Source: a virus (Duplodnaviria > Caudoviricetes). From it: a DNA stretch of 61,383 nt. Below, in pieces: positions 7,648-23,176 of the stretch. Both the position numbers and the translations under genes were made by a program. The stretch lies in IMG/VR virus record IMGVR_UViG_3300020044_005136, positions 1-61,383 of that record; one strand, written 5' to 3'. The notes beneath the pieces are model-generated. The model made no database searches and was not told the DNA's origin. It worked only from the letters and a program-made list of their open reading frames with translations. The first letter of the stretch is position 1. Every line of letters begins with the position of its first letter.

Positions 7648-8547
7648 GTGAAACTGACCAATAACCACAATATACCTGCCACTTTTGTGAACGTCATAAA
7701 GCGTCCACAGTACTCACGCGGCGATGCAAACATCAGTGTTACAGAATTACTCTCATCCCCCCGTATTGTCCAGCTGCGCGCCAAGCATGAGGCTGAGACT
7801 GAACAGGATGTATCAGAGATGATCTGGTCGTTGTTCGGCTCCGCTGTGCATAACATTCTAGAGCACGGCAAGGATGAGCATCATATCGTAGAAGAGCGTT
7901 TGTTTACACAGTTTGAAGGATGGCGTCTGTCTGGCGCGATTGATCTTCAAGAGATCTATACAGATGGCGTAGTTATTTCAGACTACAAAGTCACCGGCGC
8001 ATGGTCAGTGATGCAGGAAAAAGATGATTGGGTTACCCAGCTAAACATCTATGCATGGCTCGTCGAGAAGTGCAAAAACGTGAAAGTAAAGAAGATCCAG
8101 ATCGTAGGCATTGTCCGTGATTGGCAAGCCCGTGACGCTGCGACTAGAGAAGGATACCCATCTTCCCCTGTCGCTGTATTAGAGATGCCCCTGTGGCCGT
8201 TTGAGGAGCGTGAAGCCTATATTAAAACCCGTATCCACCTACACAACGACGCGTACTTTGCTAGCAAAACAGGTTTGGAGTTTGCTGAATGTACGCCTGC
8301 TGAAATGTGGGAGAAACCTACTATTTATGCCGTGAGAAAGATTGGCGGCGTCCGTGCCAAAGCTTTATACGGCAACAAAGAAGAAGCACAAGAGGCTCTG
8401 GCTGCCTTGAATATTAAAAAGCCAGACTACGAAATAGAAGTACGTGACGGGGAGAGAACCCGTTGCGCACGCTACTGCCAGGTTAGTAAATTCTGTACGC
8501 AGAATCAAGAGTACTTAAAAACACATTCAATTGAGGAGCAACTGTGA
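7648..8547 (+). CDS. PD-(D/E)XK (RecB/Cas4-like) exonuclease
   Basis: GSAVH, SGAID, DYK and QLNIY motifs; C-terminal RCxxYCxxxxFC. Confidence 0.85.
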   Translation: MKLTNNHNIPATFVNVIKRPQYSRGDANISVTELLSSPRIVQLRAKHEAETEQDVSEMIWSLFGSAVHNILEHGKDEHHIVEERLFTQFEGWRLSGAIDLQEIYTDGVVISDYKVTGAWSVMQEKDDWVTQLNIYAWLVEKCKNVKVKKIQIVGIVRDWQARDAATREGYPSSPVAVLEMPLWPFEEREAYIKTRIHLHNDAYFASKTGLEFAECTPAEMWEKPTIYAVRKIGGVRAKALYGNKEEAQEALAALNIKKPDYEIEVRDGERTRCARYCQVSKFCTQNQEYLKTHSIEEQL

Positions 8548-9290
8548 AACAGATAGCATCAGCTTTAGTTAAAGCACAAAAGGCATTTGGCCCGGCGCTG
8601 AAGTCTAGTACCAATCCACACTTCCGTAATAAATACGCTGACCTATCCGCGTGCGTTGAAGCCGTTATTGATGGCCTTAACAACAACGGTATTTTCTTAA
8701 TGCAGCTGACGGATGAGCATCCTGATGGCATCAAGATTCAGACCGTATTCATCCACGAATCTGGTGAGCAAATGTCTTCTGGTTGGCTGTTTGTGCCGGC
8801 ATCCAAGGCAGACCCACAGGGTTTTGGTAGCGCACTGACCTACGCTCGCCGTTATAGCCTGATGGCAGCCTGTGGTATCGCTCCAGAAGACGACGACGGC
8901 AATTCAGGCAGCAAGCCTGTACCGGCCAAGCCAGCAGCACCAGTACCCGTACCAAAAGTGGTACAGCCACCTGTAGTAGAAGCACCTGTAGCACCACCAG
9001 TAGTAGAGGAAAAGAAAGCAGAAGCATTATCACCTAAGCTTGAAGGTAAGGAAGGTGAATGGCAGTTGAAGGTATCAGCGCAGCCAGACACAGATCTTAA
9101 GTCATGGATACAAGTTATCTTTGATGCGACTAAATTTGTGCTTAGTACAGCTTCAAATGTGAACGACGTAATGTCTATTTTTAGAAGTAACCGTATTGTA
9201 TTTGACCGGTTGCAGATTGAAAGTAAAGAATCTTACGATGAATTGATGGGCATTTTTAAACAATACAGGGAGAAACTCAATGTCAAATAA
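8544..9290 (+). CDS. erf: ERF-family single-strand annealing recombinase
   Basis: NPHFRNKYADL, HESGE and GSALTYARRYSL...DDDG signatures. Confidence 0.93.
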   Translation: MKQIASALVKAQKAFGPALKSSTNPHFRNKYADLSACVEAVIDGLNNNGIFLMQLTDEHPDGIKIQTVFIHESGEQMSSGWLFVPASKADPQGFGSALTYARRYSLMAACGIAPEDDDGNSGSKPVPAKPAAPVPVPKVVQPPVVEAPVAPPVVEEKKAEALSPKLEGKEGEWQLKVSAQPDTDLKSWIQVIFDATKFVLSTASNVNDVMSIFRSNRIVFDRLQIESKESYDELMGIFKQYREKLNVK

Positions 9291-11623: not shown

Positions 11624-11898
11624 AAAAACTACTACTAAGTTTAATTCTGTCTTACGGAACAGTTAACGCAGCAGAGTATTGGGTAATGCCTACAGAAGCA
11701 GGCGGCGAAGTTGTTCTAACAAGTACGAGATCAGAAATATGCGGGGATGCGTTGCTTGTAATGTATCTAGTTAAGTCCAATCAAGAAGTTGTGTATGGCT
11801 GCTGGGCTTTGATGGATGACAGGATACATGTGCGATTTGATAACGGGATGCGTAGAGCATATGACTTATCGAACTGGACAAAAAAGGGTAAGCCATGA
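11620..11898 (+). CDS. Secreted/periplasmic hypothetical protein
   Basis: Signal-peptide-like MKKLLLSLILSYGTVNA; GCW motif. Confidence 0.7.
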   Translation: MKKLLLSLILSYGTVNAAEYWVMPTEAGGEVVLTSTRSEICGDALLVMYLVKSNQEVVYGCWALMDDRIHVRFDNGMRRAYDLSNWTKKGKP

Positions 11899-12158
11899 AT
11901 AGAGATGAAATTATCCGCTTGGCAAAGGAAGCTGAGATCGTGCAACCTGGTTGGAATGCTACTGAGAACCAATGGCGGTCACTGGAGGCGTTTGCAACGT
12001 TAGTGGTAGCAGCAGAGCGCCAGCGCAAGGCATGGGATGCGAGGCATTGGACTGAGTATGAGCATGATGTGGCGGCAGCGGAGCGGGAGTCTTGCGCCAA
12101 GATGTTATCTGAAGAAGGTTGGCTGATGGCTGCGACATTAGTGAGGGTGAAGCAATGA
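11895..12158 (+). CDS. Hypothetical protein (RDEIIRLA...ERExCAK family)
   Basis: Shares N-terminal DNA and ERExCAK with the next gene. Confidence 0.7.
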   Translation: MNRDEIIRLAKEAEIVQPGWNATENQWRSLEAFATLVVAAERQRKAWDARHWTEYEHDVAAAERESCAKMLSEEGWLMAATLVRVKQ

Positions 12159-12412
12159 CACGAGATGACATTATCCGCTTGGCCCTTATGGGAGAGCGAA
12201 GCATGAAGCAACGGATCGAGTGGGCAGTAGACATGGAGCGCGAAGAATGTGCGAAGTTGTGTGAAGTTATTAGTGATGATGAATATTATCTTGGGCGGCA
12301 ATACGCTGACATGCTACGCGCAAGGGGACTAACTAGTTTACAGCGGCAACTGATTGATGCAGATGCGTTGCAGTCTGACCCTACGGGATTGAAAGCAAGG
12401 GGGCAGGTATGA
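12155..12412 (+). CDS. Hypothetical protein (RDDIIRLA...ERExCAK family)
   Basis: As above; ATGA overlaps. Confidence 0.7.
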   Translation: MTRDDIIRLALMGERSMKQRIEWAVDMEREECAKLCEVISDDEYYLGRQYADMLRARGLTSLQRQLIDADALQSDPTGLKARGQV

Positions 12413-12786
12413 CTGACAAAGAAGTAATGCAGATGGCGTTGGATGCGTTGCAGGGAAATTGGCGAACCGATGAAAGCGATAAAGCAATCGAAGCACTACG
12501 CGCAGCACTAGCGCAGCCTGAACCGAAGCCGGTGGCGTGGATGTTGACAGAACTTGATGGCACTCCATTGATTGATTGTGGCGATTTGGTTGTTAAGCAG
12601 CGCCCAGTTTTAGTAAGCGACAAAACGGACTGCATACCACTCTACACCGCCCCATCACAGCGCGAATGGCAGGGGTTGACGGATGAGGAGATACGCAACG
12701 AAGCCAACCATCATGTATTTGATGAGTCGTTTTTTAATGGCGCAGTATGGGCAAGAGGAAAAATAAAGGAGAAGAACAATGGCTAA
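12409..12786 (+). CDS. Modular protein A-B-C-D'
   Basis: MTDKEVMQMALD / ALRAALAQPEP / REWQGLTDEE / KIKEKNN. Confidence 0.8.
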   Translation: MTDKEVMQMALDALQGNWRTDESDKAIEALRAALAQPEPKPVAWMLTELDGTPLIDCGDLVVKQRPVLVSDKTDCIPLYTAPSQREWQGLTDEEIRNEANHHVFDESFFNGAVWARGKIKEKNNG

Positions 12787-12976
12787 GTTACCGTACACAA
12801 TCACCATTTGCCCAGATGAACCGAATCCTAAACAGTTCACGGCTTTGACCCCAGCAATTGTTCGAGCTTTGCGCTATACAAACGACTTGACGATAGACCA
12901 GAGGCAACACGTTTACCCGTCAGCACCGCAAGGAATTACAAGCATCAATACGCATAAGGAAAAGAATAGTGAATAA
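12779..12976 (+). CDS. Hypothetical cargo protein in the array
   Basis: Starts at the D-linker RBS; ends HKEKNSE. Confidence 0.7.
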   Translation: MAKLPYTITICPDEPNPKQFTALTPAIVRALRYTNDLTIDQRQHVYPSAPQGITSINTHKEKNSE

Positions 12977-13214
12977 GCCAACAGGTTCTTATAGTTCGTG
13001 GGAAAACACGATGTGCAATTCACTTGCGCCGGTAGGAGAGAAAACGAGATTAGCGTGGCACGATGGATACGCTAGTGCTAAAACCGAATGGCATGGGCTG
13101 ACGGATGAGGAGATGATGCAGAGTTACGTAGCGTTAAAAAGCGTAGCGGGGTTTTATTCGTTAGAAAAATATGCGCGTGATATCGAAGCCAAGCTAAAGG
13201 AGAAGAACACATGA
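12969..13214 (+). CDS. Modular protein x-C-D
   Basis: EWHGLTDEE ... IEAKLKEKNT; GTG start. Confidence 0.75.
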   Translation: MNKPTGSYSSWENTMCNSLAPVGEKTRLAWHDGYASAKTEWHGLTDEEMMQSYVALKSVAGFYSLEKYARDIEAKLKEKNT

Positions 13215-13705
13215 ACAAAATTCGCATCAAACAATATGAGCAAACAGCTGACGAGAAAGTATCTTTTAATGGTATTAAATGGCTACGTAAGTGGGATGTC
13301 AGTGTTCAATGTGATAGCGCAGAAGAAGCAGAAGCACTACGCGCCAGACTAGCGCAGCCAGAGCCAGCAGAATGTGATGGAGGCCAATGCGGGATCGGGG
13401 GGTATTGTAAAGAGTGTCCAAAGCCGCAGCAGTCGTGGTGCAAAGCAATGAACGGCTGTGACAGTAAATGCGAGGATTGTCCAGATAAGCCAAAACCGGA
13501 TTACGAAGCCGAGTTTATAAAAGATTGGAACGAAGGCAAAGTGCGGCGCGTGTTTGACGGTAAGCGAATGGTTCCAGAACGCGAATGGGTTGGGCTAACG
13601 CGTGAAGAACTTGCAGAGATAGCAGAGTTTCATTTTCACGGCGCGTTATCTGCAAGAGAATTTTATGACGACATCGAAGCCAAGCTAAAGGAGAAGAACA
13701 CATGA
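13211..13705 (+). CDS. Modular protein x-B-(Cys-rich)-C-D
   Basis: ALRARLAQPEP, CDGGQCGIGGYC, REWVGLT, IEAKLKEKNT. Confidence 0.8.
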   Translation: MNKIRIKQYEQTADEKVSFNGIKWLRKWDVSVQCDSAEEAEALRARLAQPEPAECDGGQCGIGGYCKECPKPQQSWCKAMNGCDSKCEDCPDKPKPDYEAEFIKDWNEGKVRRVFDGKRMVPEREWVGLTREELAEIAEFHFHGALSAREFYDDIEAKLKEKNT

Positions 13706-13863
13706 CAATGCACACTTACCCGCTAAACGATTTGCGCGAACATGAAACTGATAAAGGTGCATTTTGCTGGTGCAGACCGGAGTACGACGAGGAGTATGAC
13801 TTGTACGTACATAGAAGCATGGATGGGCGCGAAGAATACGAAGAAGGAAGGAAGCCGACATGA
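13702..13863 (+). CDS. Small His/Cys protein (53 aa; PLNDLREH..CWC..H family), paralogue of 14919-15119
   Basis: Read manually; ATGA overlaps at both ends; too short for the ORF track. Confidence 0.75.
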   Translation: MTMHTYPLNDLREHETDKGAFCWCRPEYDEEYDLYVHRSMDGREEYEEGRKPT

Positions 13864-14138
13864 GCGATCCAGAAATGACCACGTTTGGTATGTACCCGAA
13901 CTGGGGTGTTGAATACTGCAAATCATATGCCGAGCAACTTAGAGATAAGACACGCGCAAACCGAGCAGAACATGCGGCGGAGTGCATTGAATATCTTTTA
14001 AGTGTGGTTCAGAAAGAATGGGTTGGGCTGACTGATGAGGAAGTTATGTCACTGTTGCCGGGAGCGGTCAGACTACCACCGGGTTGGGTGGACACAGTTC
14101 GAGCCATAGAAGCCAAGCTGAAGGAGAAGAACACATGA
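13860..14138 (+). CDS. Modular protein x-C-D
   Basis: KEWVGLTDEE ... IEAKLKEKNT. Confidence 0.75.
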   Translation: MSDPEMTTFGMYPNWGVEYCKSYAEQLRDKTRANRAEHAAECIEYLLSVVQKEWVGLTDEEVMSLLPGAVRLPPGWVDTVRAIEAKLKEKNT

Positions 14139-14503
14139 CTGACAAAGAAGTAATGCAGATGGCGTTGGATTTGGAAAAACTAGCAGATAGATTTAGTGAA
14201 GGCTGGCATGCTGGGATTCAAATTGACGCATCAGATGTTATGTTGCTTCTTGATTCCGCTGAAGCACTACGCGCAGCACTAGCGCAGCCAGAACCAGAGC
14301 CGGCGGCAGACAAGTACCTGATGGAAGTTGAATGCACAAAGTGTGGAGCAAAGCAGGATGGCATCTTGACCGTCAACGCCCCACAACAACGCAACTGGCA
14401 GAGGCTGACGGAGCAAGACTTTTCGGCTATCAATCAGTCTTGTTCAACCAAACTTCAGGCTGCGACAAGCGCAGAGTCAATACTAAAGGAGAAGAACACA
14501 TGA
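14135..14503 (+). CDS. Modular protein A-B-(CxxC)-C-D
   Basis: All four linkers present; start at the D-linker ATG 14135. Confidence 0.8.
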   Translation: MTDKEVMQMALDLEKLADRFSEGWHAGIQIDASDVMLLLDSAEALRAALAQPEPEPAADKYLMEVECTKCGAKQDGILTVNAPQQRNWQRLTEQDFSAINQSCSTKLQAATSAESILKEKNT

Positions 14504-14922
14504 CCGACAAAGAAGTAATGCAGATGGCGTTGGATATTATGGAGTCTGCAATTAAAGCTGGTGATTGGGTTGTTGACGGTGCTTGTGATCCTGATTTGGT
14601 TTTGAATGCACTACGCGCAGCACTAGCGCAGCCTGAACCGGCAGAATGTGACGGCGGGCAGTGTGGTATTGGCGGATATTGTAAGCAGTGTCCAAAGACG
14701 CAGCCTGAACAGGATTACGAAGCCGAGTTTATAAAAGATTGGAACGAAGGCAAGGTGCGGCGCGTGTCTGACGGCAAAAGAATGGTTCCTGAACGCGAAT
14801 GGCAAGGGCTGACGGATGAGGAATACGAAGCAATGGCAGAGCAGTATGTAACTAACTGCTATTTCGATACATTGGAATACGCAAAAGCCATCGAAGCAAA
14901 GCTAAAGGAGAAGAACACATGA
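14500..14922 (+). CDS. Modular protein A-B-(Cys-rich)-C-D
   Basis: All four linkers; variable segments shared with 13211-13705. Confidence 0.8.
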   Translation: MTDKEVMQMALDIMESAIKAGDWVVDGACDPDLVLNALRAALAQPEPAECDGGQCGIGGYCKQCPKTQPEQDYEAEFIKDWNEGKVRRVSDGKRMVPEREWQGLTDEEYEAMAEQYVTNCYFDTLEYAKAIEAKLKEKNT

Positions 14923-15119
14923 CATGGCAAGTATGGACAAACATAATGCAGAAGAACGGGGCTTCGACTCATGTAGTGCCATTGAATGATCTTCGAGAGC
15001 ATGTGGAAGACGCAACGTGCTGGTGTAACCCGCGAGTTGACGAGGAGTTGAACTTAGTTACGCACAACAGCGCAGACAATAGAGAGGCGTTTGAAACAGG
15101 GGAAAGGAAGCCGACATGA
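14919..15119 (+). CDS. Small His/Cys protein (PLNDLREH..CWC..H family)
   Basis: Paralogue of 13702-13863; same RKPT C-terminal linker. Confidence 0.75.
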   Translation: MTWQVWTNIMQKNGASTHVVPLNDLREHVEDATCWCNPRVDEELNLVTHNSADNREAFETGERKPT

Positions 15120-15526
15120 CTGACCGCGAACTATTGCAGCAGGCGTTGGATGCGTTGCAGGGAAATTGGCGAACCGATGAAAGCGATAAAGCAATCGAAG
15201 CACTACGCGCCAGACTAGCGCAGCCTGAGAACGACTTTAATCCAGATTGGGACGCAATGGCAGTCATGGTTGAAGAGCAGCAGCGCATGGCAAAGCGGAT
15301 TGAGGAACTCGAAGCTCGACTAGCGCAGCCAGAGCAGGAGCCGGTGGGCATTAACAAAGTTATTATAGATTCAATACGTGATTCGTCGGAAATTGTAGCG
15401 CCGCCAAAGCGCGAATGGGTTGGGCTGACTGATGAGGAAGCCAGAGAACTTTGTGTGGCGAATGTACCGTATGTTATAGATATGGTTCGTGCCCTTGAAG
15501 CCAAGCTAAAGGAGAAGAACACATGA
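15116..15526 (+). CDS. Modular protein A'-B-B-C-D
   Basis: Two B linkers; first variable segment identical to that of 12409-12786. Confidence 0.8.
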   Translation: MTDRELLQQALDALQGNWRTDESDKAIEALRARLAQPENDFNPDWDAMAVMVEEQQRMAKRIEELEARLAQPEQEPVGINKVIIDSIRDSSEIVAPPKREWVGLTDEEARELCVANVPYVIDMVRALEAKLKEKNT

Positions 15527-15708
15527 GTAGAGTACATGCAGTGACGGAAGACATTCAATTCACAGCAAAGGTCGCGTCGTTCACACCACTGCCGACTGAC
15601 ATGCTTGTTAAAGAGTTCTGTGCGTGGCTACAGGAGCGCGGCAAGGAACACAACTTTCTTGTTTGGCGCGTCACCATCGAAGGTGCAAGTACGGACTACA
15701 ACCTATGA
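15523..15708 (+). CDS. Hypothetical cargo protein, last gene of the array
   Basis: Starts at the D-linker ATG. Confidence 0.65.
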   Translation: MSRVHAVTEDIQFTAKVASFTPLPTDMLVKEFCAWLQERGKEHNFLVWRVTIEGASTDYNL

Positions 15709-15711
15709 CGG

Positions 15712-15784
15712 GTACTAACGGCCTAGCTTCAGGCCGAGTTCCCTTGTGACCACTAGGCCGCCAGACCAAGGGACAACCTAGTAC
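15712..15784 (+). ncRNA. Candidate pseudoknotted structured element closing the array
   Basis: GTACTA/TAGTAC, CGGCCTAG/CTAGGCCG and crossing TCCCTTG/CAAGGGA pairings. Strand inferred from neighbouring genes. Confidence 0.5.
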
Positions 15785-15825
15785 ATTTATTGTAAAGCAT
15801 AATAAATTAATTGTAAGGAAAAAGG

Positions 15826-16427: not shown

Positions 16428-16610
16428 ATGTTAAGAGATGGAAAGTTTATTAAAGAAGATCCAATTCATATTAGTGCGCACTATGTTCCAGTATTCAGGG
16501 AAAGAACTTTTACGCCAGAAGAAAGATTTACACAAGATGTTTTACTAGGGAATACTCCATACACCACATCTAAAATTACTTTGTTCTTTTCTAGATTGCT
16601 TAGTTTGTGA
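16428..16610 (+). CDS. Hypothetical protein
   Basis: AGGAG RBS. Confidence 0.6.
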   Translation: MLRDGKFIKEDPIHISAHYVPVFRERTFTPEERFTQDVLLGNTPYTTSKITLFFSRLLSL

Positions 16611-16804
16611 GAAACAATTTAGTAAAAATTGCGAAGCGGGCAGCTAAAGAAGAAGGATTAATTTACGCCCCAGATATAGCCGCGCTCGCTTGTTTGCAAC
16701 GTATCTCAAAAATTTTAATACAAAATGAACGAGAAAGTTGTGCGCAATTATGTGAAGATTTTGATGCCCCACATTTAGCAAAAGCCATTAGAGAAAAGGA
16801 ATAA
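16607..16804 (+). CDS. Hypothetical protein (ERESCAQLCE family)
   Basis: GTG start overlapping the upstream stop; ERExCA motif. Confidence 0.6.
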   Translation: MRNNLVKIAKRAAKEEGLIYAPDIAALACLQRISKILIQNERESCAQLCEDFDAPHLAKAIREKE

Positions 16805-17115: not shown

Positions 17116-17377
17116 GCTCACAGCAAAGGAACGTGAGCATATAGGGAGGGTAAAAGCTCTCCCTTGTTCAGTCTGCGATGCGCCGGCACCAAGCTACGCA
17201 CACCACGTTAAGCAGCACCAACAGTACACGGTGGTAGCACTGTGCTACGACTGCCACCAAGGGCCACTGTTAGGCATCCACGGCCAGCGGCGTATGTGGG
17301 CAATCAAGAAGATGGATGAACTTGATGCCCTAGCCATTACCGTAGAACGCTTATTAGAGACCTGCACTTTTCCGTAA
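17105..17377 (+). CDS. Ref/DUF968-like HNH-type Zn-binding nuclease
   Basis: LPCSVC...AHH...LCYDCH motifs. Confidence 0.7.
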   Translation: MNNKLTAKEREHIGRVKALPCSVCDAPAPSYAHHVKQHQQYTVVALCYDCHQGPLLGIHGQRRMWAIKKMDELDALAITVERLLETCTFP

Positions 17378-20300
17378 ATCTTTTACATCTATAGACTTAA
17401 GAATATCCTGCTCTGTCTCGCGAAGATATTTAATCTCAGCAGCCTTTTCAGCTGAAGTGTATTCGCTAGATGGAGCATTCCTAATGTAGGTAATATTTGC
17501 GCGAATTCTAGACAAGTACTTACCAACCTTATCAACAGTCTTCTCTAGTGCCAGCTTATCAATGACGCCTTCTTTTTCAAGGTACGCATCAATCTGATCT
17601 GGGCTGCGTTTCTTTAAGTCATTTAATGTATTGGCTACCCTATCAACTTCATCCCGCAACACATAGAAGTCTGTCTTCAAGGAAGATTCATATTCCTTAG
17701 TCATGAATGAGCCGGCACCAGGCACCGCTGCAATAGCCTCTTTAAGGGATAGCTCAGGCCGCTCAATCATTGGATCACTATGCAGGATAGGGTTAGTCAG
17801 AAGGATAGTTAACCCGCCAACAGATCCAAATATCCCGCGCAGTAAATGATCAGCAGCGATAGGCGACACCATTCCTGTTTGACCAAACAACTTAGCTAGC
17901 TCAGAAGTACTGTCATTAAACTGGCGCTCAATCTCTAATCCTTTTTGCCACTGACCAATCAATGGCTTACCTTGGAATAAGTTGTAATTGATAGCGACTT
18001 CAACGATAGGCTTAATCACTTGCGGTACAGGCGTTGGAGCAAGTAGTGCAGTTCCGAGCGCAGCTTTCATTGAGTCTCTAAACTTACGGCCATCTTCAGA
18101 ACCCTTATCCGTCAGCAACAAATAGGTATGCTCAGTAATTACTTTAGGAATGGTGAATAGATCCATACGAAGTGGAATACCAAAACCACCAGTACCTGGG
18201 ATCATCAGCATCCTGTCACGGATTGTTGTGGTCTTCCGCAGGTAATCCTCATCATCACCATTCATCATGGCATACAGGAGGGATAGCGTCATTACAGAGC
18301 CAGTGGTGGCCGCTAGTGTTGCCAGAGCATCCTTGCGATCACGCGGGGAGATGCCTACGCCACTGATGGTTTTAATGGCTACATTCTGCGCTGCTAAGTA
18401 AGCATTAAAGAATGGGATAACCTGACCAGCCATAGCAAGAAACTTACTGCTACCACGCCGGCGGAAGTTAATAACTTCAAATGCTTTCTCAAGTGCTTCA
18501 GCAGGGTTTACGCCTTGGGAGATGGATGCCTCATACACAGCCTGCCGTACAGCGTTATCAGACGCCATAGCGATATGCTCTAGTATCCCCTTGATCTTAG
18601 CCTTAATACCTGGGCTAGCACGCATACCAGAATAAACTTCAGCATCAACACGAGCAGCAGCAGATGAAAAGTCTTTTACGCCTGTAGCGCCATACATCTT
18701 AAGCTTCTCATGCGTTAAGCTCTTACCGCGTAAGGTTTGGATAAACTCTTTGACGGCCAGCACTGGAATTCTCAAAGCATACTGAGGCTTTAATCCAGAT
18801 GAAAAGATGGAAGCAAACGCGTCCTGTGGCAACTGAGATACAGCAAACAATGGGTTAAGCACAATCGACTGACGCAGTAAGGTAGCCATCTTAGATGCAT
18901 ACTTAATGGTTGGAATAGCCACTGCTTCCAATCCATTGAATGCGTCCATATACATGGGGTCTTCCATGTTATAGAACTCTTGCTTACCATCACGCCAGAT
19001 GCTTACGTTGTTAGCGCCAGGCTTAGGTGCATCCATCTTGGTGCCAAGATTCATCTCAACCGCAGCATCAGCCAGCGCCACAGCAGAACGGTTACGGATA
19101 GAGCGATTGATAGCGTATTGCATCCAACGCGCCATGTTATCGAACACATCGTTAACCGGCTTGGATGAACCCTTGATCATCTTTTCTTTGGACTGAACCT
19201 GCAATCCACGAACAAACTCTTTCGGGCCCGCAAACTTCTCTAACTGTTCTTCACGGTAGAAAGGAACATAGTCGATGTTATCTAACATCTTCTCTGCATC
19301 TTCTTTTGTCCACAGCCCGCTATCCACAAGAACATCAATAGTGTTCTTACGCATTCCATTCCACGTATCAACAAGACCTTTAAGCTCTGGAATTGTTTCA
19401 AACAATCCTAAGCCAGTATCAATCTGATCATCCGTCATATGGATAAACTTAGGCTTCTCACCAGCCAAAGAAGTTAATCTAGATATCTGGTTTCTAATAT
19501 CTTTCTTTTGGTCGGCAGTAAGCTGCTCCGTTGATAGACGGTAATTTAAATCCGCGATATCACTTGGAGCGTTTTCAATGGCTTCATTAAACTTAACCAA
19601 AGACTTCAGGCGTTTAGCTTCAAAAGCTTTATGTGCTACAGCCTCGGAGTCTTCTTTGGATAGGCCATACTTTTCAGCAATAACATCAAGCTGCTTAGAC
19701 AGAGATACAAAGTTGTCCTTATCTTTTTTAACTTCCCATTTGTGCATAGCCGAATTGTATTCGACGCGGCCATGAATTAAAGCCTGCGAAGCAACAGCAT
19801 CACCATGTACAGTTTGGCTAAGGCTAATATTAAGCAAGTTACCAATGCGCTCTTCCACACCACGCCCAGCTTCGGCAATAGCACGACGGTATGAATTGTT
19901 TAATGCAGCATCAGCAGAGAACGACCAAGTCTGAACCTTATCTATAAACTTGGTGTAAGTCTTATAGCCTTCCTTGGCAGTAAGGCCTGGGTTCTGCGCA
20001 GAGTTCTTAAGCAGCTCTTTAGTTTTCTCAAAGGATGTTTGCTCCGGCGGCTTACGTACAAAGCCCATATCCTTGATAGCATCCAGCGCAGATTTACCTG
20101 CTGCCTTATTTATGTTTTCAAACGAGTTAAATTGAACACCATTACTAGTGACTAGATTTACAATCATTTCTTTGGTGATGCGATTCTTGCTACCGTTCAT
20201 AATGTCTTTGAACATTTTCTGAACAGCATAACGGTTATCAAAACCAATGACGTTTTTTAACCCTTCCCACAGCCGAGCAATAGCCCTTTTAAATTTATCC

Positions 20301-23176
20301 CATGCAGTGCCAAGTTCAGAAGCCATAAGATTTTCAGCATTTACCGCCCAGAACTCAGATGGGTTAATAAACTGATACATATCATAACTTGGCAGCAGCT
20401 CCTGCGCCTTACGAAAATTGATTTTTTTTGGATTATCAATAAAATCCATAACCGCATTAAAATACTTTTGATGCTCCTCATCTGGATGCTTTTTGATAGC
20501 AGCCTGTAAACCCTTAAACCACGCTTGAGCAACAACTAACCGTTGCTCTGAATTCATCATTTGTTCTAAGCTATGAGCCAATTCGTGACGAATAGTCGCT
20601 GGGTCATTGATGCCACTGGTTCCCTTATACAAACGCACAATTCTTTCAAATGGGAAAAACTGACCAGCGGCTGGTGTATTTTCATCAGTTTTAACACTAA
20701 GCAACAAGCCTTCTAGTACATCAGGCATCTTGTTGTAAGCTAAATTGATGACGTTAAACACCTCGTCAGATATATTCCCCGCATCAAATTCCAACGCAGC
20801 CTTAGCTAAAAATTTCTCAGCACTATCTTGGCGAGGTTTAGTGGCCTTAATTGTAGAGCTAAGGTCCTTAGCCTGTTGTATCAAGCGAGTTACAGATGCT
20901 TGCATACTTAGATCTACCTTGCCTTCGGCCACTTGTTTTGGCACGCGGGCTAACTTTGCCCGCAAACCAGCATATTCCTTAATCTGTTGTTCGCGTATAG
21001 CTTTACTACCAAAGATCAAATCCCCATCTTGTTCAGCAAGAGATGGCTCCTCAATATTCATTAAGAAATTAAGTGGCTCTGTTCTTTCAACAGCATCTCT
21101 TATTCTTTGGATAGTTTCTTCAGGCTTGGCGCTTTTACTTACATCCAAGCCAATATCTCTTGCAACATTATTTAATTTTGCAGTGCTAAGTGGCACACCA
21201 CCTTTATCAATGGCAGCAAGTAAATCTTTTGCAATTTTTATTTCAGGAGCTACACTTACTTCTTCTGCCGCCCCATCTTCTCTTTGTACTGATTCAGCAG
21301 CTCCAGCCTCGCCTTCGGGGACAAACTCTTTAGATGCTTCATCAGCTGCTCTTTGCTCATTTGTTGCTTCTTGGATGGCTGCGTTAACATCGTCTATCTC
21401 CAAATGTTCTTTAAGAAGGTTTTCAAGTTCCAATGACGTATTGCCTAACTGTTTAATTTCTAATTCAGTTTCATACGTATAGTGATTGGAGTCGCGAAGC
21501 TTCTGCTTAATAATTTCTTGGGCATCATTTTCTTTTTGCATTTGCTCAGTAGGATCTGAGTTAGCAATAACGTCACTACGCAAATCAAAAGGCAAAAAGT
21601 TATCTAATGATCCATTGCGCACTAAAGTTGAAAGCGATATGCCTTCACCATCTTTACTCTGCAAAGGCTTAAATTTAAGGCTTACACCAATATCCTTAAC
21701 ATCAGACTCAGTTAGCACGCCTTTTTTGTTTGGCATCAATGCAGTCCTGAGATTATCAAATCCCCTTGGCGCATTTTTTAGTTTATTTAATTCTTTAGTA
21801 ACATCTTCAAGATTTTTTTCTGTTTCTAATACATCTTCTGTTTTGGTTGCTGGCTCTTCACGCAAAGCTTCTTGCTTACGTAAGCTACGCAATTCTTTTG
21901 CATCAACAGACTCTTCAAATTCAGGTGGCAGCGCAGCCTCAACAGGAGCTGGAGTAATTTCTTCTGTTGTGGGTGCTGGTGGCGGAACTCCTCCAGTAAC
22001 CGGAGGGGCTATTTCCTCAGTAGCAGGCGGCGTTACTTCTTCTTCAGGGGGAGTTACTTTCTGTTGCCCAGCTTCCTGCTCTGCCATTGCCTTATCTACG
22101 ATCTGTATAGCCTGCTCAAGAGATACATCTCCATCACGAACAGCTTCGGCCAATCTAGCTAACTCTGGGTTGGTTCTAGGATCAGCCGTCTTCAATAACT
22201 CAATTATTTTCTGGGTTTTATTTTCAACAGGAGCCTGTGCTTGTTCACCACCACCTAATGGAGAGACAACAGCAGAGCCAAGCAATCCCATCAAACCTTC
22301 TTTGGTTGCCGCACCAGCCACGCCCTTTAAAGTATCTACATCAATACCTTCACGCTGGGCTGCAATGTTTGCCGCAATCTGTTCTTGGGTAGCTTGACCT
22401 GCCTCAGTTCCAAATTCAGAAGCAGCAGCAGCACCTTTGCGCGCAAAACCTTTTACGTTGCCAGAAAGAATCTGTTCAATACCATACTTACCAACAACTG
22501 CACCAATACCAGCACCAGTAACAATCTGCCCCCAGTTTTTACCTAGATAATCTTGGGCTTCAGCAGCAATCTTAGCCGCTTCTTCCGGTGGCATTTTAGT
22601 CTTCTCAAGTTCAGACTTAACGTTGTCGTAGATGGATCCCTTAACTGCGCCAGTACCCTCAATAGCGCCAAGCACTACGTTGAATACTGTACGGGCAGCA
22701 ACCGCAGCACGAGCCTCGCCAGCACCAGGGATTAACAGGCTAAGAAGGTTAGGAATGATTGAGCCAACAGCCTGTGCCGTAGACTGAATAGGCGCAGCAA
22801 GAACGGATTTAGCAGCAACCTTAGCTTCAGCAAGTGGCCCTTCTTTAGCAGCAGCCTCTTCTTGTTGCCGGTAATACTCTATTTCCTTTTGACGTTCTGG
22901 CGTATACAACCCAGACAAATGCTTCTGTGCTTCAGCCATTCCTCTGGATGCCGCATTGTCAGCGCCAAATACATCAGCAATAGACTTTGCTACACCAAGA
23001 GTACCTTGTTGTAAGGAGAGAGCTGTATCACCTAAAGAGAATGGAGCCTTGGGTGCAGGCGCATTAGCCCGTATTGATGGAAGGATATCGCTTTCAATAG
23101 CACTTGCTATTTGGTCCTGAGTCATGCCATCAGGAAACTCTACAATACCAACTCCAACAATATTTATGCGCTGCAT
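17354..23176 (-). CDS. Giant polyvalent (ejected) virion protein with zincin-like metallopeptidase and probable C-terminal LPD38 domain
   Basis: 1940 aa; IRHELAH (HExxH) with downstream EFWA; INFRRRG..IPFFNA..KPIVEVAINYNLF LPD38-like segment. Confidence 0.75.
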   Translation of the reverse strand: MQRINIVGVGIVEFPDGMTQDQIASAIESDILPSIRANAPAPKAPFSLGDTALSLQQGTLGVAKSIADVFGADNAASRGMAEAQKHLSGLYTPERQKEIEYYRQQEEAAAKEGPLAEAKVAAKSVLAAPIQSTAQAVGSIIPNLLSLLIPGAGEARAAVAARTVFNVVLGAIEGTGAVKGSIYDNVKSELEKTKMPPEEAAKIAAEAQDYLGKNWGQIVTGAGIGAVVGKYGIEQILSGNVKGFARKGAAAASEFGTEAGQATQEQIAANIAAQREGIDVDTLKGVAGAATKEGLMGLLGSAVVSPLGGGEQAQAPVENKTQKIIELLKTADPRTNPELARLAEAVRDGDVSLEQAIQIVDKAMAEQEAGQQKVTPPEEEVTPPATEEIAPPVTGGVPPPAPTTEEITPAPVEAALPPEFEESVDAKELRSLRKQEALREEPATKTEDVLETEKNLEDVTKELNKLKNAPRGFDNLRTALMPNKKGVLTESDVKDIGVSLKFKPLQSKDGEGISLSTLVRNGSLDNFLPFDLRSDVIANSDPTEQMQKENDAQEIIKQKLRDSNHYTYETELEIKQLGNTSLELENLLKEHLEIDDVNAAIQEATNEQRAADEASKEFVPEGEAGAAESVQREDGAAEEVSVAPEIKIAKDLLAAIDKGGVPLSTAKLNNVARDIGLDVSKSAKPEETIQRIRDAVERTEPLNFLMNIEEPSLAEQDGDLIFGSKAIREQQIKEYAGLRAKLARVPKQVAEGKVDLSMQASVTRLIQQAKDLSSTIKATKPRQDSAEKFLAKAALEFDAGNISDEVFNVINLAYNKMPDVLEGLLLSVKTDENTPAAGQFFPFERIVRLYKGTSGINDPATIRHELAHSLEQMMNSEQRLVVAQAWFKGLQAAIKKHPDEEHQKYFNAVMDFIDNPKKINFRKAQELLPSYDMYQFINPSEFWAVNAENLMASELGTAWDKFKRAIARLWEGLKNVIGFDNRYAVQKMFKDIMNGSKNRITKEMIVNLVTSNGVQFNSFENINKAAGKSALDAIKDMGFVRKPPEQTSFEKTKELLKNSAQNPGLTAKEGYKTYTKFIDKVQTWSFSADAALNNSYRRAIAEAGRGVEERIGNLLNISLSQTVHGDAVASQALIHGRVEYNSAMHKWEVKKDKDNFVSLSKQLDVIAEKYGLSKEDSEAVAHKAFEAKRLKSLVKFNEAIENAPSDIADLNYRLSTEQLTADQKKDIRNQISRLTSLAGEKPKFIHMTDDQIDTGLGLFETIPELKGLVDTWNGMRKNTIDVLVDSGLWTKEDAEKMLDNIDYVPFYREEQLEKFAGPKEFVRGLQVQSKEKMIKGSSKPVNDVFDNMARWMQYAINRSIRNRSAVALADAAVEMNLGTKMDAPKPGANNVSIWRDGKQEFYNMEDPMYMDAFNGLEAVAIPTIKYASKMATLLRQSIVLNPLFAVSQLPQDAFASIFSSGLKPQYALRIPVLAVKEFIQTLRGKSLTHEKLKMYGATGVKDFSSAAARVDAEVYSGMRASPGIKAKIKGILEHIAMASDNAVRQAVYEASISQGVNPAEALEKAFEVINFRRRGSSKFLAMAGQVIPFFNAYLAAQNVAIKTISGVGISPRDRKDALATLAATTGSVMTLSLLYAMMNGDDEDYLRKTTTIRDRMLMIPGTGGFGIPLRMDLFTIPKVITEHTYLLLTDKGSEDGRKFRDSMKAALGTALLAPTPVPQVIKPIVEVAINYNLFQGKPLIGQWQKGLEIERQFNDSTSELAKLFGQTGMVSPIAADHLLRGIFGSVGGLTILLTNPILHSDPMIERPELSLKEAIAAVPGAGSFMTKEYESSLKTDFYVLRDEVDRVANTLNDLKKRSPDQIDAYLEKEGVIDKLALEKTVDKVGKYLSRIRANITYIRNAPSSEYTSAEKAAEIKYLRETEQDILKSIDVKDLRKSAGL

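Follow-up and report, generated by a model that had tools for sequence, protein, structure and literature searches.

Organization of the gene array

The window, meaning the whole 61,383-nt stretch of DNA that was analyzed, is the complete 61-kb genome of an uncultured freshwater phage, and its positions 12409-15708 form an operon whose small early genes are translationally coupled. Eleven successive plus-strand ORFs lie there, with neighbors overlapping stop to start by 4 or 8 nt. Seven of them (starting at 12409, 12969, 13211, 13860, 14135, 14500, and 15116) are built on the frame A-v1-B-v2-C-v3-D, in which linker motifs A to D alternate with variable cassettes; ORF calls, a repeat search, and a fuzzy scan all confirmed this layout, which a sequence-only reading had proposed. 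Of the four non-family genes, two (13702 and 14919) are paralogues matching PHROG 2864. The genes are given below with copies of their parts in related contigs (L numbers).

12409-12786, +: family gene 1 (125 aa); A, v1, B, v2, C, v3, degenerate D (KIKEKNNG); 12415-12696 has a 97.5% copy in L043
12779-12976, +: small non-family gene (65 aa) ending in a D-like HKEKNSE junction that carries the Shine-Dalgarno (SD) site for the next gene; 81-87% copies in L013, L080, and L081
12969-13214, +: family gene 2 (81 aa, GTG start); C, v3, D
13211-13705, +: family gene 3 (164 aa); own N-terminus, B, Cys-rich cassette, insert, v2b, C, v3, D; 13182-13599, reaching into it, has a 98.3% copy in L008
13702-13863, +: interspersed PHROG 2864 gene (53 aa, E 1.5e-13) ending in an RKPT junction with SD-like GGAAGG; 100% copies in L006, L010, L017, and L018; 13676-14131 has a 93% copy in L057
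13860-14138, +: family gene 4 (92 aa); own N-terminus, C, v3, D; L031 carries a 100% copy of 13848-14042
14135-14503, +: family gene 5 (122 aa); A, v1, B, v2, degenerate C (NWQRLTEQD), v3, partial D (ILKEKNT); 14135-14297 has 98% copies in L003 and L004
14500-14922, +: family gene 6 (140 aa); full A-v1-B-v2-C-v3-D; its protein was used for the structure model
14919-15119, +: second PHROG 2864 gene (66 aa), 57% identical to 13702-13863; 14893-15119, spanning it, is 100% identical in L031
15116-15526, +: family gene 7 (136 aa); diverged A, v1, B, v2a, second B, v2b, C, v3, D; 15191-15341 has a 98.7% copy in L007
15523-15708, +: last array gene, non-family (61 aa), started from the D junction; 15497-15708 has a 95% copy in L080

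The linker copies are located as follows.

12409-12444, +: A copy 1, MTDKEVMQMALD
14135-14170, +: A copy 2, 36/36 nt identical to copy 1
14500-14535, +: A copy 3, 35/36 nt
15116-15151, +: A copy 4, diverged, 29/36 nt, MTDRELLQQALD
12490-12518, +: B copy 1, EALRAALAQP
13331-13359, +: B copy 2, EALRARLAQP
14261-14289, +: B copy 3
14605-14633, +: B copy 4, NALRAALAQP
15197-15225, +: B copy 5
15302-15330, +: B copy 6, 70%, 5' half diverged (EELEARLAQP), the extra unit of gene 15116
12664-12689, +: C copy 1, EWQGLTDEE
13086-13111, +: C copy 2
13583-13608, +: C copy 3, EWVGLTREE
14016-14041, +: C copy 4
14393-14418, +: C copy 5, degenerate
14797-14822, +: C copy 6
15413-15438, +: C copy 7
12757-12786, +: D, degenerate, containing AAGGAG and the ATG of the next gene (12779)
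13182-13214, +: D, IEAKLKEKNT*, with AAGGAG, 8 nt, and an ATGA stop/start overlap
13673-13705, +: D
14106-14138, +: D, forming with the following A a conserved gene-boundary tract of ~65 nt
14480-14503, +: D, partial (ILKEKNT*), with A directly 3'
14890-14922, +: D
15494-15526, +: D

The fuzzy scan, which covered the entire window on both strands, recovered four copies of A, five of B, six of C, and six of D, every one on the plus strand within 12409-15526 and none outside the array; this confinement is not a chance distribution. The repeat search returned families of six copies (B), six or seven (D), five or six (C), and three near-exact copies plus the diverged 15116 copy (A). Cassettes recur as well. 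Positions 12397-12521 match 15104-15228 at 88%, with a 69-nt exact repeat (12435-12503 = 15142-15210) that covers the end of A, the whole of v1, and the start of B, both of its ends falling within linkers. Positions 13334-13430 match 14608-14704 at 81%, and 13488-13627 match 14702-14841 at 84%. The recurrence previously described for v1 (genes 12409 and 15116) and v2 (13211 and 14500) thus holds, as does the extra B unit of gene 15116.

Protein family and predicted structure

The seven genes are members of a very large phage protein family that is unnamed and has no Pfam entry. At E<=1e-3 a C-D profile matched 25,526 cluster representatives, and at E<=1e-10 the count was 4,020; one family member used as query matched 1,312 proteins at E<=1e-3. 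D ended at most 2 residues from the C-terminus in 109 of the 133 top matches having it, and distant relatives keep the motifs as protein using other codons. No Pfam family, GP38 included, matches any array protein, and searches including Pfam and PHROG assigned no function to the array proteins, so the term "effectors" applied to them earlier is not retained. An accessory host-interaction or anti-defense role is a guess, possible but doubtful.

The AlphaFold2 model of the gene 14500 protein (mean pLDDT 73) contains helices at 3-19, 31-43, 106-116, and 124-139. A and B are predicted to form the helix ends of an N-terminal helical hairpin and C and D those of a C-terminal one, with a Pro-rich stretch after the N-terminal hairpin and then one or more middle cassettes. 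The model thus places the linkers at the outer helix ends of the two hairpins, which argues against regarding them as passive spacers. Whole domains can serve as cassettes, as illustrated by protein P0121 with a WDGH domain in cassette position. The dN/dS values of cassettes, 0.03-0.43 (dS 0.15-1.5), identify them as real coding units under purifying selection.

Motif D as a translational-coupling signal

Motif D is a translational-coupling signal that combines the SD site and the start codon of the next gene, with AAGGAG followed by a 7-8 nt spacer and the ATG. Among 93 distinct C-terminal contexts, 83 possess an SD-like core, 90 precede a newly starting ORF of at least 40 aa, 73 have the 7-8 nt spacer, and 54 show the ATGA overlap; AAG and GAG occupy 84/93 Lys and 81/96 Glu positions, respectively. 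This role alone explains the nucleotide conservation of D. Its copies were correctly recognized as a fixed linker in the sequence-only reading, which overlooked the coupling function.

Cassettes shared and reassorted between phages

A copy at >=95% identity exists for 18 of the 27 cassette segments (13 at 100%), spread over 11 other contigs, and four of the 27 have no copy. The backbones of three near-complete carrier genomes were compared, and their structural genes are 64-88% identical to the window. The 81 full-frame proteins comprise 27 v1, 32 v2, and 32 v3 types, with 67 v1-v2 combinations and 18 four-gamete pairs, and the central AA/AR difference of B occurs in both forms in 4/13 v1 types and 5/12 v2 types. 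L036, a locus of the nearest relative, carries the A-v1 of gene 14500 fused to what follows B in gene 15116.

Matches at >=95% identity end within 6 nt of a linker or gene junction in 41 of 50 cases, against 32% expected. When loci were compared with each other, 89/287 ends fell at strict motifs (16% expected) and 146/287 at looser motifs plus gene ends (25% expected); across the 80 loci only 31% (strict) to 51% (loose motifs and gene ends) of high-identity ends are at motifs. Such ends are partly built in, because differing cassettes force a match to stop near a conserved piece, and the reassortment and codon data are therefore the independent evidence. Together, the match ends, reassortment, and synonymous conservation support the earlier proposal that the linkers may act as crossover points.

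In 20 runs of independent metagenomes, drawn from 13 studies, 26-35% of the 31-mers of the array were present, and contig pieces from these runs extend linker to linker. The arrangement of the window itself was found in no sequencing run, none holding half of the 31-mers. The related sequences are all short-read metagenome assemblies and the array holds exact repeats up to 69 nt, so some combinations could be assembly chimeras.

Codon-level conservation of the linkers

Across many viral contigs the linkers use the same codons, often minor ones, while synonymous positions of the adjoining cassettes have diverged. Where contigs share an amino acid in a linker, they also share its codon at a frequency of 0.65-0.72, versus 0.28-0.46 predicted by codon usage in these genes, indicating conservation beyond the protein level. 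The second Leu of B is CTA in 32 and its Ala GCG in 37 of 38 distinct versions; the Gly of C is GGG in 60/64 and its Thr ACG in 49/68; the Ala of A is GCG in 29/32. These favored codons account for only 11-18% of their families in the long ORFs of the window. Blastn matches of 70-80% identity gave 0.79-0.89 for linkers versus 0.61 for cassettes, and codon identity over 13 versions was 0.78 for B versus 0.61 for the adjoining Cys cassette, although the latter is equally conserved as protein.

A direct RNA or DNA function (translation signals, structure, or a binding site), with recombination incidental, could also conserve linker nucleotides. This holds for D, with its AAG-GAG preference 7-8 nt before the next start, and it could extend to A, the first 12 codons of the gene, where initiation could depend on codons; codon choice in the first codons of a gene can affect initiation. 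B and C, however, are intragenic with no downstream start codon at a consistent distance, Rfam returned no match, and promoter- and terminator-like sites were not in excess in the scan (7 promoter-like versus 12.8 expected, 3 terminator-like versus 7.0). Cassette reassortment would also be left unexplained, making direct function an unlikely general account. Taken by itself, the sequence of B and C would fit direct DNA or RNA selection as well as homogenization by exchange; we infer that their uniformity is kept by exchange.

Proposed cassette exchange and candidate recombination genes

The array probably arose as phages across the population exchanged cassettes through homologous recombination in conserved coding sequence; we infer that mechanism, and likewise the choice of enzymes for it. 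Cassettes (v1, v2, v3, and whole neighboring genes) would be drawn from a pool common to many phages, and ordinary homologous recombination would move them between genomes and occasionally within one. Crossovers would fall in the only sequence that the partners have in common, namely the 26-36 nt coding motifs and the ~65-nt D+A gene boundary, and repeated exchange would render the motifs near-uniform at the DNA level across the pool, so that they stay recombination-proficient. D would perform a second job, its Lys-Glu codons being the SD site and its last codons overlapping the next start codon, so that an arriving cassette would bring the expression signal for its downstream neighbor.

Two candidate recombination genes precede the array by 3-5 kb on the same strand.

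7648-8547, +: PD-(D/E)XK nuclease gene adjoining ERF (PF12705, E 1.9e-7)
8544-9290, +: ERF-family annealase gene (PF04404, E 2.2e-22), upstream of the array in the same direction, as noted earlier

The nuclease is likely the exonuclease partner of ERF. Phages' pairs of annealase and exonuclease, among them the Erf/Exo pair of D3, recombine 78%-identical substrates as well as lambda Red does (De Paepe et al. 2014, PMC3945230). This ability to recombine diverged DNA, the position of the two genes, and the 69-nt patch with its resemblance to within-genome conversion are compatible with an in-genome combinatorial generator, in which the phage's own ERF recombines linkers within and between sister genomes and creates new small effectors in each lineage. 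ERF is nevertheless present in only 2 of 14 long family-carrying records (2/10 among those >=90% complete) and RecT in 2-3, with no Rad52/Sak and no above-cut-off AAA_24 in any of them, and no recombinase common to all carriers was found among the 14. Linker identity within contigs barely exceeds that between contigs (A 0.84 versus 0.81, B 0.92 versus 0.88, C 0.85 versus 0.85, D 0.90 versus 0.87; permutation p 0.15, 0.07, 0.33, and 0.02, respectively). A paralogous copy in the array exists for only 6/27 segments, and for four of these six another contig holds a closer one; the nearest copy of most cassettes lies in other phages and not within the array itself. Such a generator is therefore improbable. 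From the earlier proposal of recombinase-driven sub-gene shuffling, the shuffling at linkers is supported and the ERF drive and in-genome origin are not, and its statement that integrase and reverse transcriptase are absent agrees with the search of the 61,383-nt genome, where neither a tyrosine integrase, a reverse transcriptase, nor an HNH nuclease was found.

Assembler jumps between co-occurring related phages at repeated linkers could in principle mimic a mosaic, given the exact repeats of 69, 42, and up to 36 nt within the array, the contig of the nearest relative that stops 243 nt into its array, and Logan contigs broken at linkers. Against this, 12 pairs of loci taken from separate assemblies are >=99% identical across 2-12 kb that take in whole family genes, the multi-cassette stretches 13182-13599, 12415-12696, and 13676-14131 recur in other assemblies, every junction is in frame, and combinations vary among proteins of JGI, ENA, NCBI, Logan, and Tara origin, so an artefact is very improbable. 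Plain tandem duplication and divergence without exchange, with motifs held by protein-level purifying selection, would suit the tandem layout and the protein-conserved motifs of distant relatives with other codons, but it is hardly credible, being already contradicted by the four-gamete combinations, by 95-100% identical cassettes within phages of 64-88% backbone identity, and by synonymous conservation in the motifs that the equally conserved adjoining cassette lacks.

Comparison with known systems

Population-wide cassette exchange invites comparison with integron cassettes, shufflons, and diversity-generating retroelements, which similarly yield varied sets of small coding cassettes within a constant frame. 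The array differs in that their tyrosine integrase, reverse transcriptase, or HNH nuclease was not found in the window, its repeats are all direct on one strand, and its variation swaps unrelated segments instead of introducing adenine-directed mutations.

In T-even gp38/gp37 adhesins, conserved glycine-rich motifs separate the hypervariable segments and are where recombination takes place, and Trojet et al. (2011) describe chimeras from exchange in or near these motifs and a population-wide library of interchangeable segments (PMC3157838). The single ORF alternating conserved motifs and variable segments is common to both. The array, however, comprises small early genes in a coupled operon and not tail-fiber adhesins, its conserved parts are the predicted helix ends of two hairpins and not a glycine core, and its family can use whole domains such as WDGH as cassettes. 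Motif recombination in T-even adhesins is reportedly also covered by Tetart et al. in 1996 and 1998.

For PeSL cassettes of T4-type phages, Arbiol et al. (2010) describe a promoter and stem-loop between hyperplastic-region genes that mediate modular shuffling (PMC2839356). Here too a short expression signal at the gene boundary, D or the D+A junction, would double as the homology through which small non-essential genes are swapped. The signal of the array, however, is an SD site and start codon inside coding sequence rather than a sigma-70 promoter with terminator, and exchange also cuts within genes, at B and C. Comeau et al. (2014) are said to treat PeSL cassettes as well.

Martinsohn et al. 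(2008) reportedly also addressed Rad52-like annealases and phage mosaicism. Relaxed homologous recombination by these annealases is a source of phage mosaicism, and work by De Paepe et al. (2014) on temperate coliphages and prophages reports short mosaics between more conserved flanks (median ~400 bp) and small gene fragments exchanged more often than whole modules (PMC3945230). The window phage also encodes a likely Erf/Exo pair; a recognized annealase is missing from most carrier genomes of the array family. The mosaics of the array consist of 45-180 nt cassettes with homologies of 26-36 nt, a known kind of recombination that would operate here at an unusually fine, within-gene scale.

Genome organization and anatomy of the array

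With its 61,383 nt and direct terminal repeats, the window is a complete viral record. Its - strand encodes the terminase, portal, capsid protein, and tail fibres, and its + strand carries an early block with PD-(D/E)XK nuclease, ERF annealase, DUF3310, and MazG genes, the first two of which are located as follows:

7648-8547, + strand, PD-(D/E)XK nuclease
8544-9290, + strand, ERF annealase

The portal is 34-45% identical to portals of Pelagibacter, Caulobacter, and other aquatic phages. No tyrosine integrase (Phage_integrase), reverse transcriptase (RVT_1), or HNH nuclease was found in the window genome, in agreement with the sequence-only reading, which had proposed shuffling without integrase or reverse transcriptase. 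A NinX homologue (1444-1776; PF10765, E 1e-20) occurs in the same phage as the Erf/nuclease pair, without an integrase, placing lambdoid-type early genes in an aquatic phage that apparently does not integrate. Directly downstream of the early block, a 1,940-aa protein (17354-23176, - strand) contains an LPD38 'large polyvalent protein' domain. Two adjacent large proteins (35143-37926 and 37935-40034, - strand), each with three or four Laminin_G_3 (concanavalin-like lectin) repeats, adjoin a 729-aa protein with an endosialidase-chaperone (Peptidase_S74) C-terminus, all three being probably tail fibres or receptor-binding proteins.

The array comprises 11 + strand genes (12409-15708, named here by their start positions) within the early operon, with the structural genes on the opposite strand, and each neighbouring pair overlaps by 4 or 8 nt. 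Seven of the 11 carry conserved in-frame linkers in the order A, B, C, D, enclosing the variable cassettes v1, v2, and v3. The four linker classes were recovered by repeat finding, and fuzzy scanning of the entire genome on both strands located four copies of A, five of B, six of C, and six of D, every one on the + strand within the array, so that all repeats are direct. The longest exact array repeat measures 69 nt (12435-12503 = 15142-15210), spanning the end of A, the whole of v1, and the start of B. Gene calls, repeat finding, and the whole-genome linker scan confirm the anatomy first proposed from sequence alone, and the sharing of cassettes between array genes is likewise present, including this 69-nt repeat.

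Two PHROG 2864 genes (13702-13863 and 14919-15119) are interspersed in the array; they are 57% identical, have a PLNDLREH...CWC motif, and each terminate in an RKPT junction that has an SD-like GGAAGG of its own plus an ATGA overlap, with 100% identical copies in several other contigs. A second small paralogous family flanks the array, consisting of three genes (11895-12158, 12155-12412, and 16607-16804) of 28-42% identity that have in common an N-terminal M-x-R-D/N..I/V..A motif and an invariant ERE-x-CA motif. It is mosaic too, because stretches of 12069-12327 are found in other contigs at 89-97% identity. After the array there is a single intergenic gap, 15709-15825, which is conserved elsewhere (92% in locus L031 and 83% in locus L010, both related IMG/VR loci), with folding no better than that of shuffled sequence (z -0.86) and no Rfam match.

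Linker D as a coupling signal

Linker D reads AAG GAG AAG AAC ACA TGA, in which a Shine-Dalgarno core is separated by a 7-8 nt spacer from an ATG that overlaps the stop codon. Among 93 distinct C-terminal D contexts from related loci, an SD-like core is present in 83, a spacer of 7-8 nt in 73, and an ATGA overlap in 54, and in 90 an ORF of 40 aa or more starts after D. Non-family array genes begin at the same kind of junction, and the D and D+A junctions are short conserved sequences bounding the small genes of the array. Promoter-like sites in the array region number 7 against 12.8 expected and terminator-like sites 3 against 7.0, none of them at junctions, and an Rfam search of the region gave no match. 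With SD/start junctions and no promoter or terminator excess, the array looks like one translationally coupled operon, in which linker D has a second, ordinary role as the Shine-Dalgarno/start signal for the next gene.

Family size and predicted protein architecture

With one family member as query, 1,312 proteins were retrieved at E<=1e-3; none has a Pfam domain and all are annotated 'hypothetical'. The C-D module, searched as a profile, matched 25,526 cluster representatives at E<=1e-3, of which 4,020 reached E<=1e-10. The 142 new top hits of this profile include 88 with C and D only, 19 with B, C, and D, and nine with all four motifs; D lies at most 2 residues from the C-terminus in 109 of the 133 that have it. 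Two C motifs occur in 26 of the 142, and such proteins look like fusions of neighbouring genes. Four family proteins (P0134, P0145, P0181, and P0208) contain two or three complete 'EPVAW ... PLYTAPP ... WxGLTDEE ... KLKEKN' units per chain and look like read-through fusions of array neighbours at the D junction. In thirteen longer proteins (246-351 aa) the frame is unchanged but encloses a larger or doubled middle, in one case a WDGH domain, a name for which the literature search returned no paper.

Megablast of the array against GenBank phages gave no match, nor did tblastn with gene 14500, and genes 15116 and 12409 had weak matches only (E 2e-5 to 0.1) to spring-water metagenome phages and phage DSL-LC04. 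Nearly all of the 31 family loci in genome collections belong to metagenome bins from freshwater; many of these carry the label Burkholderiales, which hints weakly at the host. Scanning 10 array proteins against Pfam gave no family; the A-B and C-D modules had no NCBIfam match and reached PHROGs of unknown function at E 0.002-0.006 only. Structural searches of the family returned a best E of 0.017 against PDB profiles, with calmodulin-like matches driven by composition, a best E of 1.1 in Foldseek on the family model, a best Z of 5.4 in VIA-align wide, to generic helical hairpins over residues 1-56 only, and unnamed viral clusters only in the ESM Atlas (score 0.84, under its own 0.9 bar). None of these matches supports an assignment of fold or function. 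A literature search on the motif strings and on intragenic phage mosaicism, with supplementary tables outside its scope, found no description of the family.

The gene 14500 product was modelled with AlphaFold2 from 58 aligned homologues, with a mean pLDDT of 73 and a pTM of 0.36, low enough that the relative placement of modules is not confident. The first predicted hairpin consists of helices 3-19 and 31-43, with A and B at its outer ends and v1 at its tip; in the second, formed by helices 106-116 and 124-139, C and D lie at the ends and v3 lies at the tip. Residues 45-70, a Cys-rich cassette, are poorly predicted, and are followed by a small helix and two strands. Given these helix-end positions, the linkers in the model make up the invariant framework of two small helical modules and are not spacers.

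Conservation of linkers at the DNA level

A peptide-pattern scan of IMG/VR, using six patterns of which none is a linker B or D motif, yielded 141 relatives, from which 80 loci were kept; 42 of these 80 hold two to six motif-bearing ORFs in tandem. Among 38 distinct B versions, CTA encodes the first Leu in 27 and the second in 32, GCG encodes Ala in 37, and CAG encodes Gln in 35. Linker C shows GGG for Gly in 60/64, CTG for Leu in 58/68, and ACG for Thr in 49/68, and linker A shows GCG for Ala in 29/32. Favoured linker codons are minor in the long ORFs of the phage (CTA 11%, GGG 14%, GCG 15%, ACG 18%).

Codon identity between contigs at positions encoding the same amino acid is 0.68 for A, 0.66 for B, 0.72 for C, and 0.65 for D, against 0.38, 0.28, 0.38, and 0.46, respectively, expected from the same genes outside the motifs. 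In nucleotide matches of 70-80%, linkers reach 0.79-0.89 and cassettes 0.61; in those of 80-90%, the values are 0.71-0.85 and 0.64. The cleanest control is the Cys-rich cassette beside B, which is as conserved in protein (dN 0.02-0.05) and nearly saturated at synonymous sites (dS 0.8-1.5), with a codon identity over 13 versions of 0.61 versus 0.78 for B. The synonymous-site comparison that had been proposed as a check thus places linkers above cassettes, and the linkers are conserved as DNA, not just as protein. An overlapping antisense gene was set aside as the source of codon conservation, as the conserved blocks span 26-36 nt and an antisense gene would constrain longer stretches.

Cassette reassortment and a shared pool

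The cassettes are real coding units, with dN/dS of 0.03-0.43 in those 15 of 17 segments for which homologous versions exist. Typed at 60% identity, 81 distinct four-motif proteins comprise 27 v1, 32 v2, and 32 v3 types in 67 v1-v2 combinations. The four-gamete pattern, a sign of recombination, was scored as pairs of types sharing at least two partners and occurs in 18 v1/v2, nine v1/v3, and three v2/v3 pairs, within a set that over-represents gene 14500 cassettes because it was collected by likeness to that gene. Both forms of the central AA/AR difference in B are found in 4/13 v1 types and 5/12 v2 types.

Eighteen of the 27 window cassette segments are copied at 95% identity or above in other contigs (13 of them at 100%), across 11 contigs; five more match at 87-93% and four are without match. 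A paralogous copy inside the array exists for six of the 27 only, one pair at 100% and the others at 80-92%. Three complete or near-complete carriers, that is, other phage records holding the family (62-63 kb), have structural genes (20 kb) 64-88% identical to those of the window. The only close relative is L036, a 22-kb fragment of 92-99% identity, whose array opens with A-v1 of gene 14500 and continues via B into the next segment of gene 15116, the contig stopping 243 nt later. Locus L031 holds 13580-13863, 13848-14042, and 14893-15119 at 99.6-100%, in an order differing from that of the window. These comparisons point to the window array as a patchwork drawn from a shared cassette pool.

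Among 25 distinct array matches (at least 95% identity over at least 100 nt), 41 of 50 ends fall within 6 nt of a linker or gene junction, against 32% expected from the share of the region taken by such positions. When the 80 loci were inter-compared, 89 of 287 match ends coincided with strict motifs (16% expected), rising to 146 of 287 (25% expected) once the motifs were relaxed and gene ends and two Pro-rich junction motifs were added, so that about half lie elsewhere. This enrichment is partly built in, because matches must stop near a conserved piece where cassettes differ, and the reassortment and codon results are weighted more for that reason. Taken with the 41 of 50 ends, they uphold the proposal that linkers serve as crossover points; the accompanying expectation for mosaic breakpoints in relatives holds for the window array and only in part across the 80 loci.

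Assemblers may be misled by exact repeats such as those in the array (69, 42, and up to 36 nt), and the mosaic could in principle be an artefact of assembly at repeated linkers. However, 12 locus pairs from different assemblies agree at 99% or above over 2-12 kb, across whole family genes, and several multi-cassette stretches of the window are found again in other contigs. Twenty sequencing runs from 13 studies, representing freshwater, estuary, drinking water, aquaculture, industrial waste, crustacean, and sponge sources, each contain 26-35% of array 31-mers and none reaches half; with no run above 35%, the full order of the window array is that of its assembly. Linker-to-linker contig pieces occur in four of the 20 runs, their joints being weak evidence because the short sides measure only 20-46 nt, and uncovered array parts were given no weight.

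Agent of recombination

The sequence-only reading had assigned the shuffling to ERF, acting as a generator within the genome. A scan of 14 long carrier records covering ERF, RecT, AAA_24, and Rad52/Sak detected ERF in only two and RecT in two or three, with no Rad52/Sak and no AAA_24 above cut-off, which argues against a role specific to ERF. Linker copies are hardly more alike within a contig than between contigs, which, together with the scarcity of array paralogues, speaks against an in-genome generator. The 69-nt patch indicates at least one exchange between two array genes, or two captures of the same cassette. We infer that exchange is population-wide, by whatever homologous recombination is available, and not the device of one phage. 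Erf/nuclease pairs recombined 78%-identical substrates as efficiently as lambda Red, according to PMC3945230.

Significance of the cassette frame

The array is best read as a real case, and an unusually fine-grained one, of cassette exchange at conserved motifs; its small proteins belong to a very large family that has no name. A more far-reaching reading, which we consider possible though rather unlikely, is that the A/B/C/D frame is under selection as a recombinase-free system of gene cassettes, in effect an integron that works through homology. If so, helix-end codons would be universal in-frame homology arms, uniform across a community of unrelated freshwater phages, and the C-terminal arm would bring both signals for translating the next gene, its ribosome-binding site and its start codon. 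Every cassette, be it a 15-residue hairpin tip or an entire domain, would then fit the array of any phage and be expressed immediately, and the synonymous conservation of B and C would reflect selection for exchangeability, not merely exchange.

Phage mosaicism is usually described gene by gene, and good documentation of within-gene exchange comes, to our knowledge, mostly from tail-fibre adhesins. In the array, this exchange logic would operate on cassettes of 45-180 nt inside small early genes, through homologies of 26-36 nt that are nearly identical across phages with 64-88% identical backbones. The array offers a natural test case for how short or diverged a homology can be and still drive phage recombination in nature, and for whether selection for exchangeability can shape coding sequence. 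The frame also makes it easy to recognise a large pool of small, variable proteins from phages, which comprises over 25,000 sequence clusters, has no name in the databases, and merits functional testing.

Comparison with known systems

Diversity-generating retroelements use a reverse transcriptase and a template/variable repeat pair, whereas here the genome gave no RVT_1 match and variation takes the form of segment replacement. Shufflons and integrons rely on a site-specific recombinase with repeats (inverted sfx sites, or attC); in contrast, the array repeats are all direct on the + strand, and a scan of the genome for Phage_integrase gave no match. PeSL cassettes shuffle small genes in T4-type phages (PMC2839356). 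The array resembles them in having short conserved sequence at small-gene boundaries (D and D+A), but its boundary is an SD and start codon within coding sequence, whereas that of PeSL is a sigma-70-type promoter with a stem-loop terminator, and the array is not a member of that system.

Another parallel in logic is found in the gp38/gp37 adhesins of T-even phages, where recombination at conserved motifs swaps hypervariable segments (PMC3157838). Array ORFs similarly alternate conserved motifs with variable segments, and natural array chimeras have exchange points in or beside the motifs, more weakly so across the 80 loci. With no gp38 homology (Pfam, 10 proteins) and genes that are not tail-fibre genes, the array is not a member of the gp38 system but works like it.
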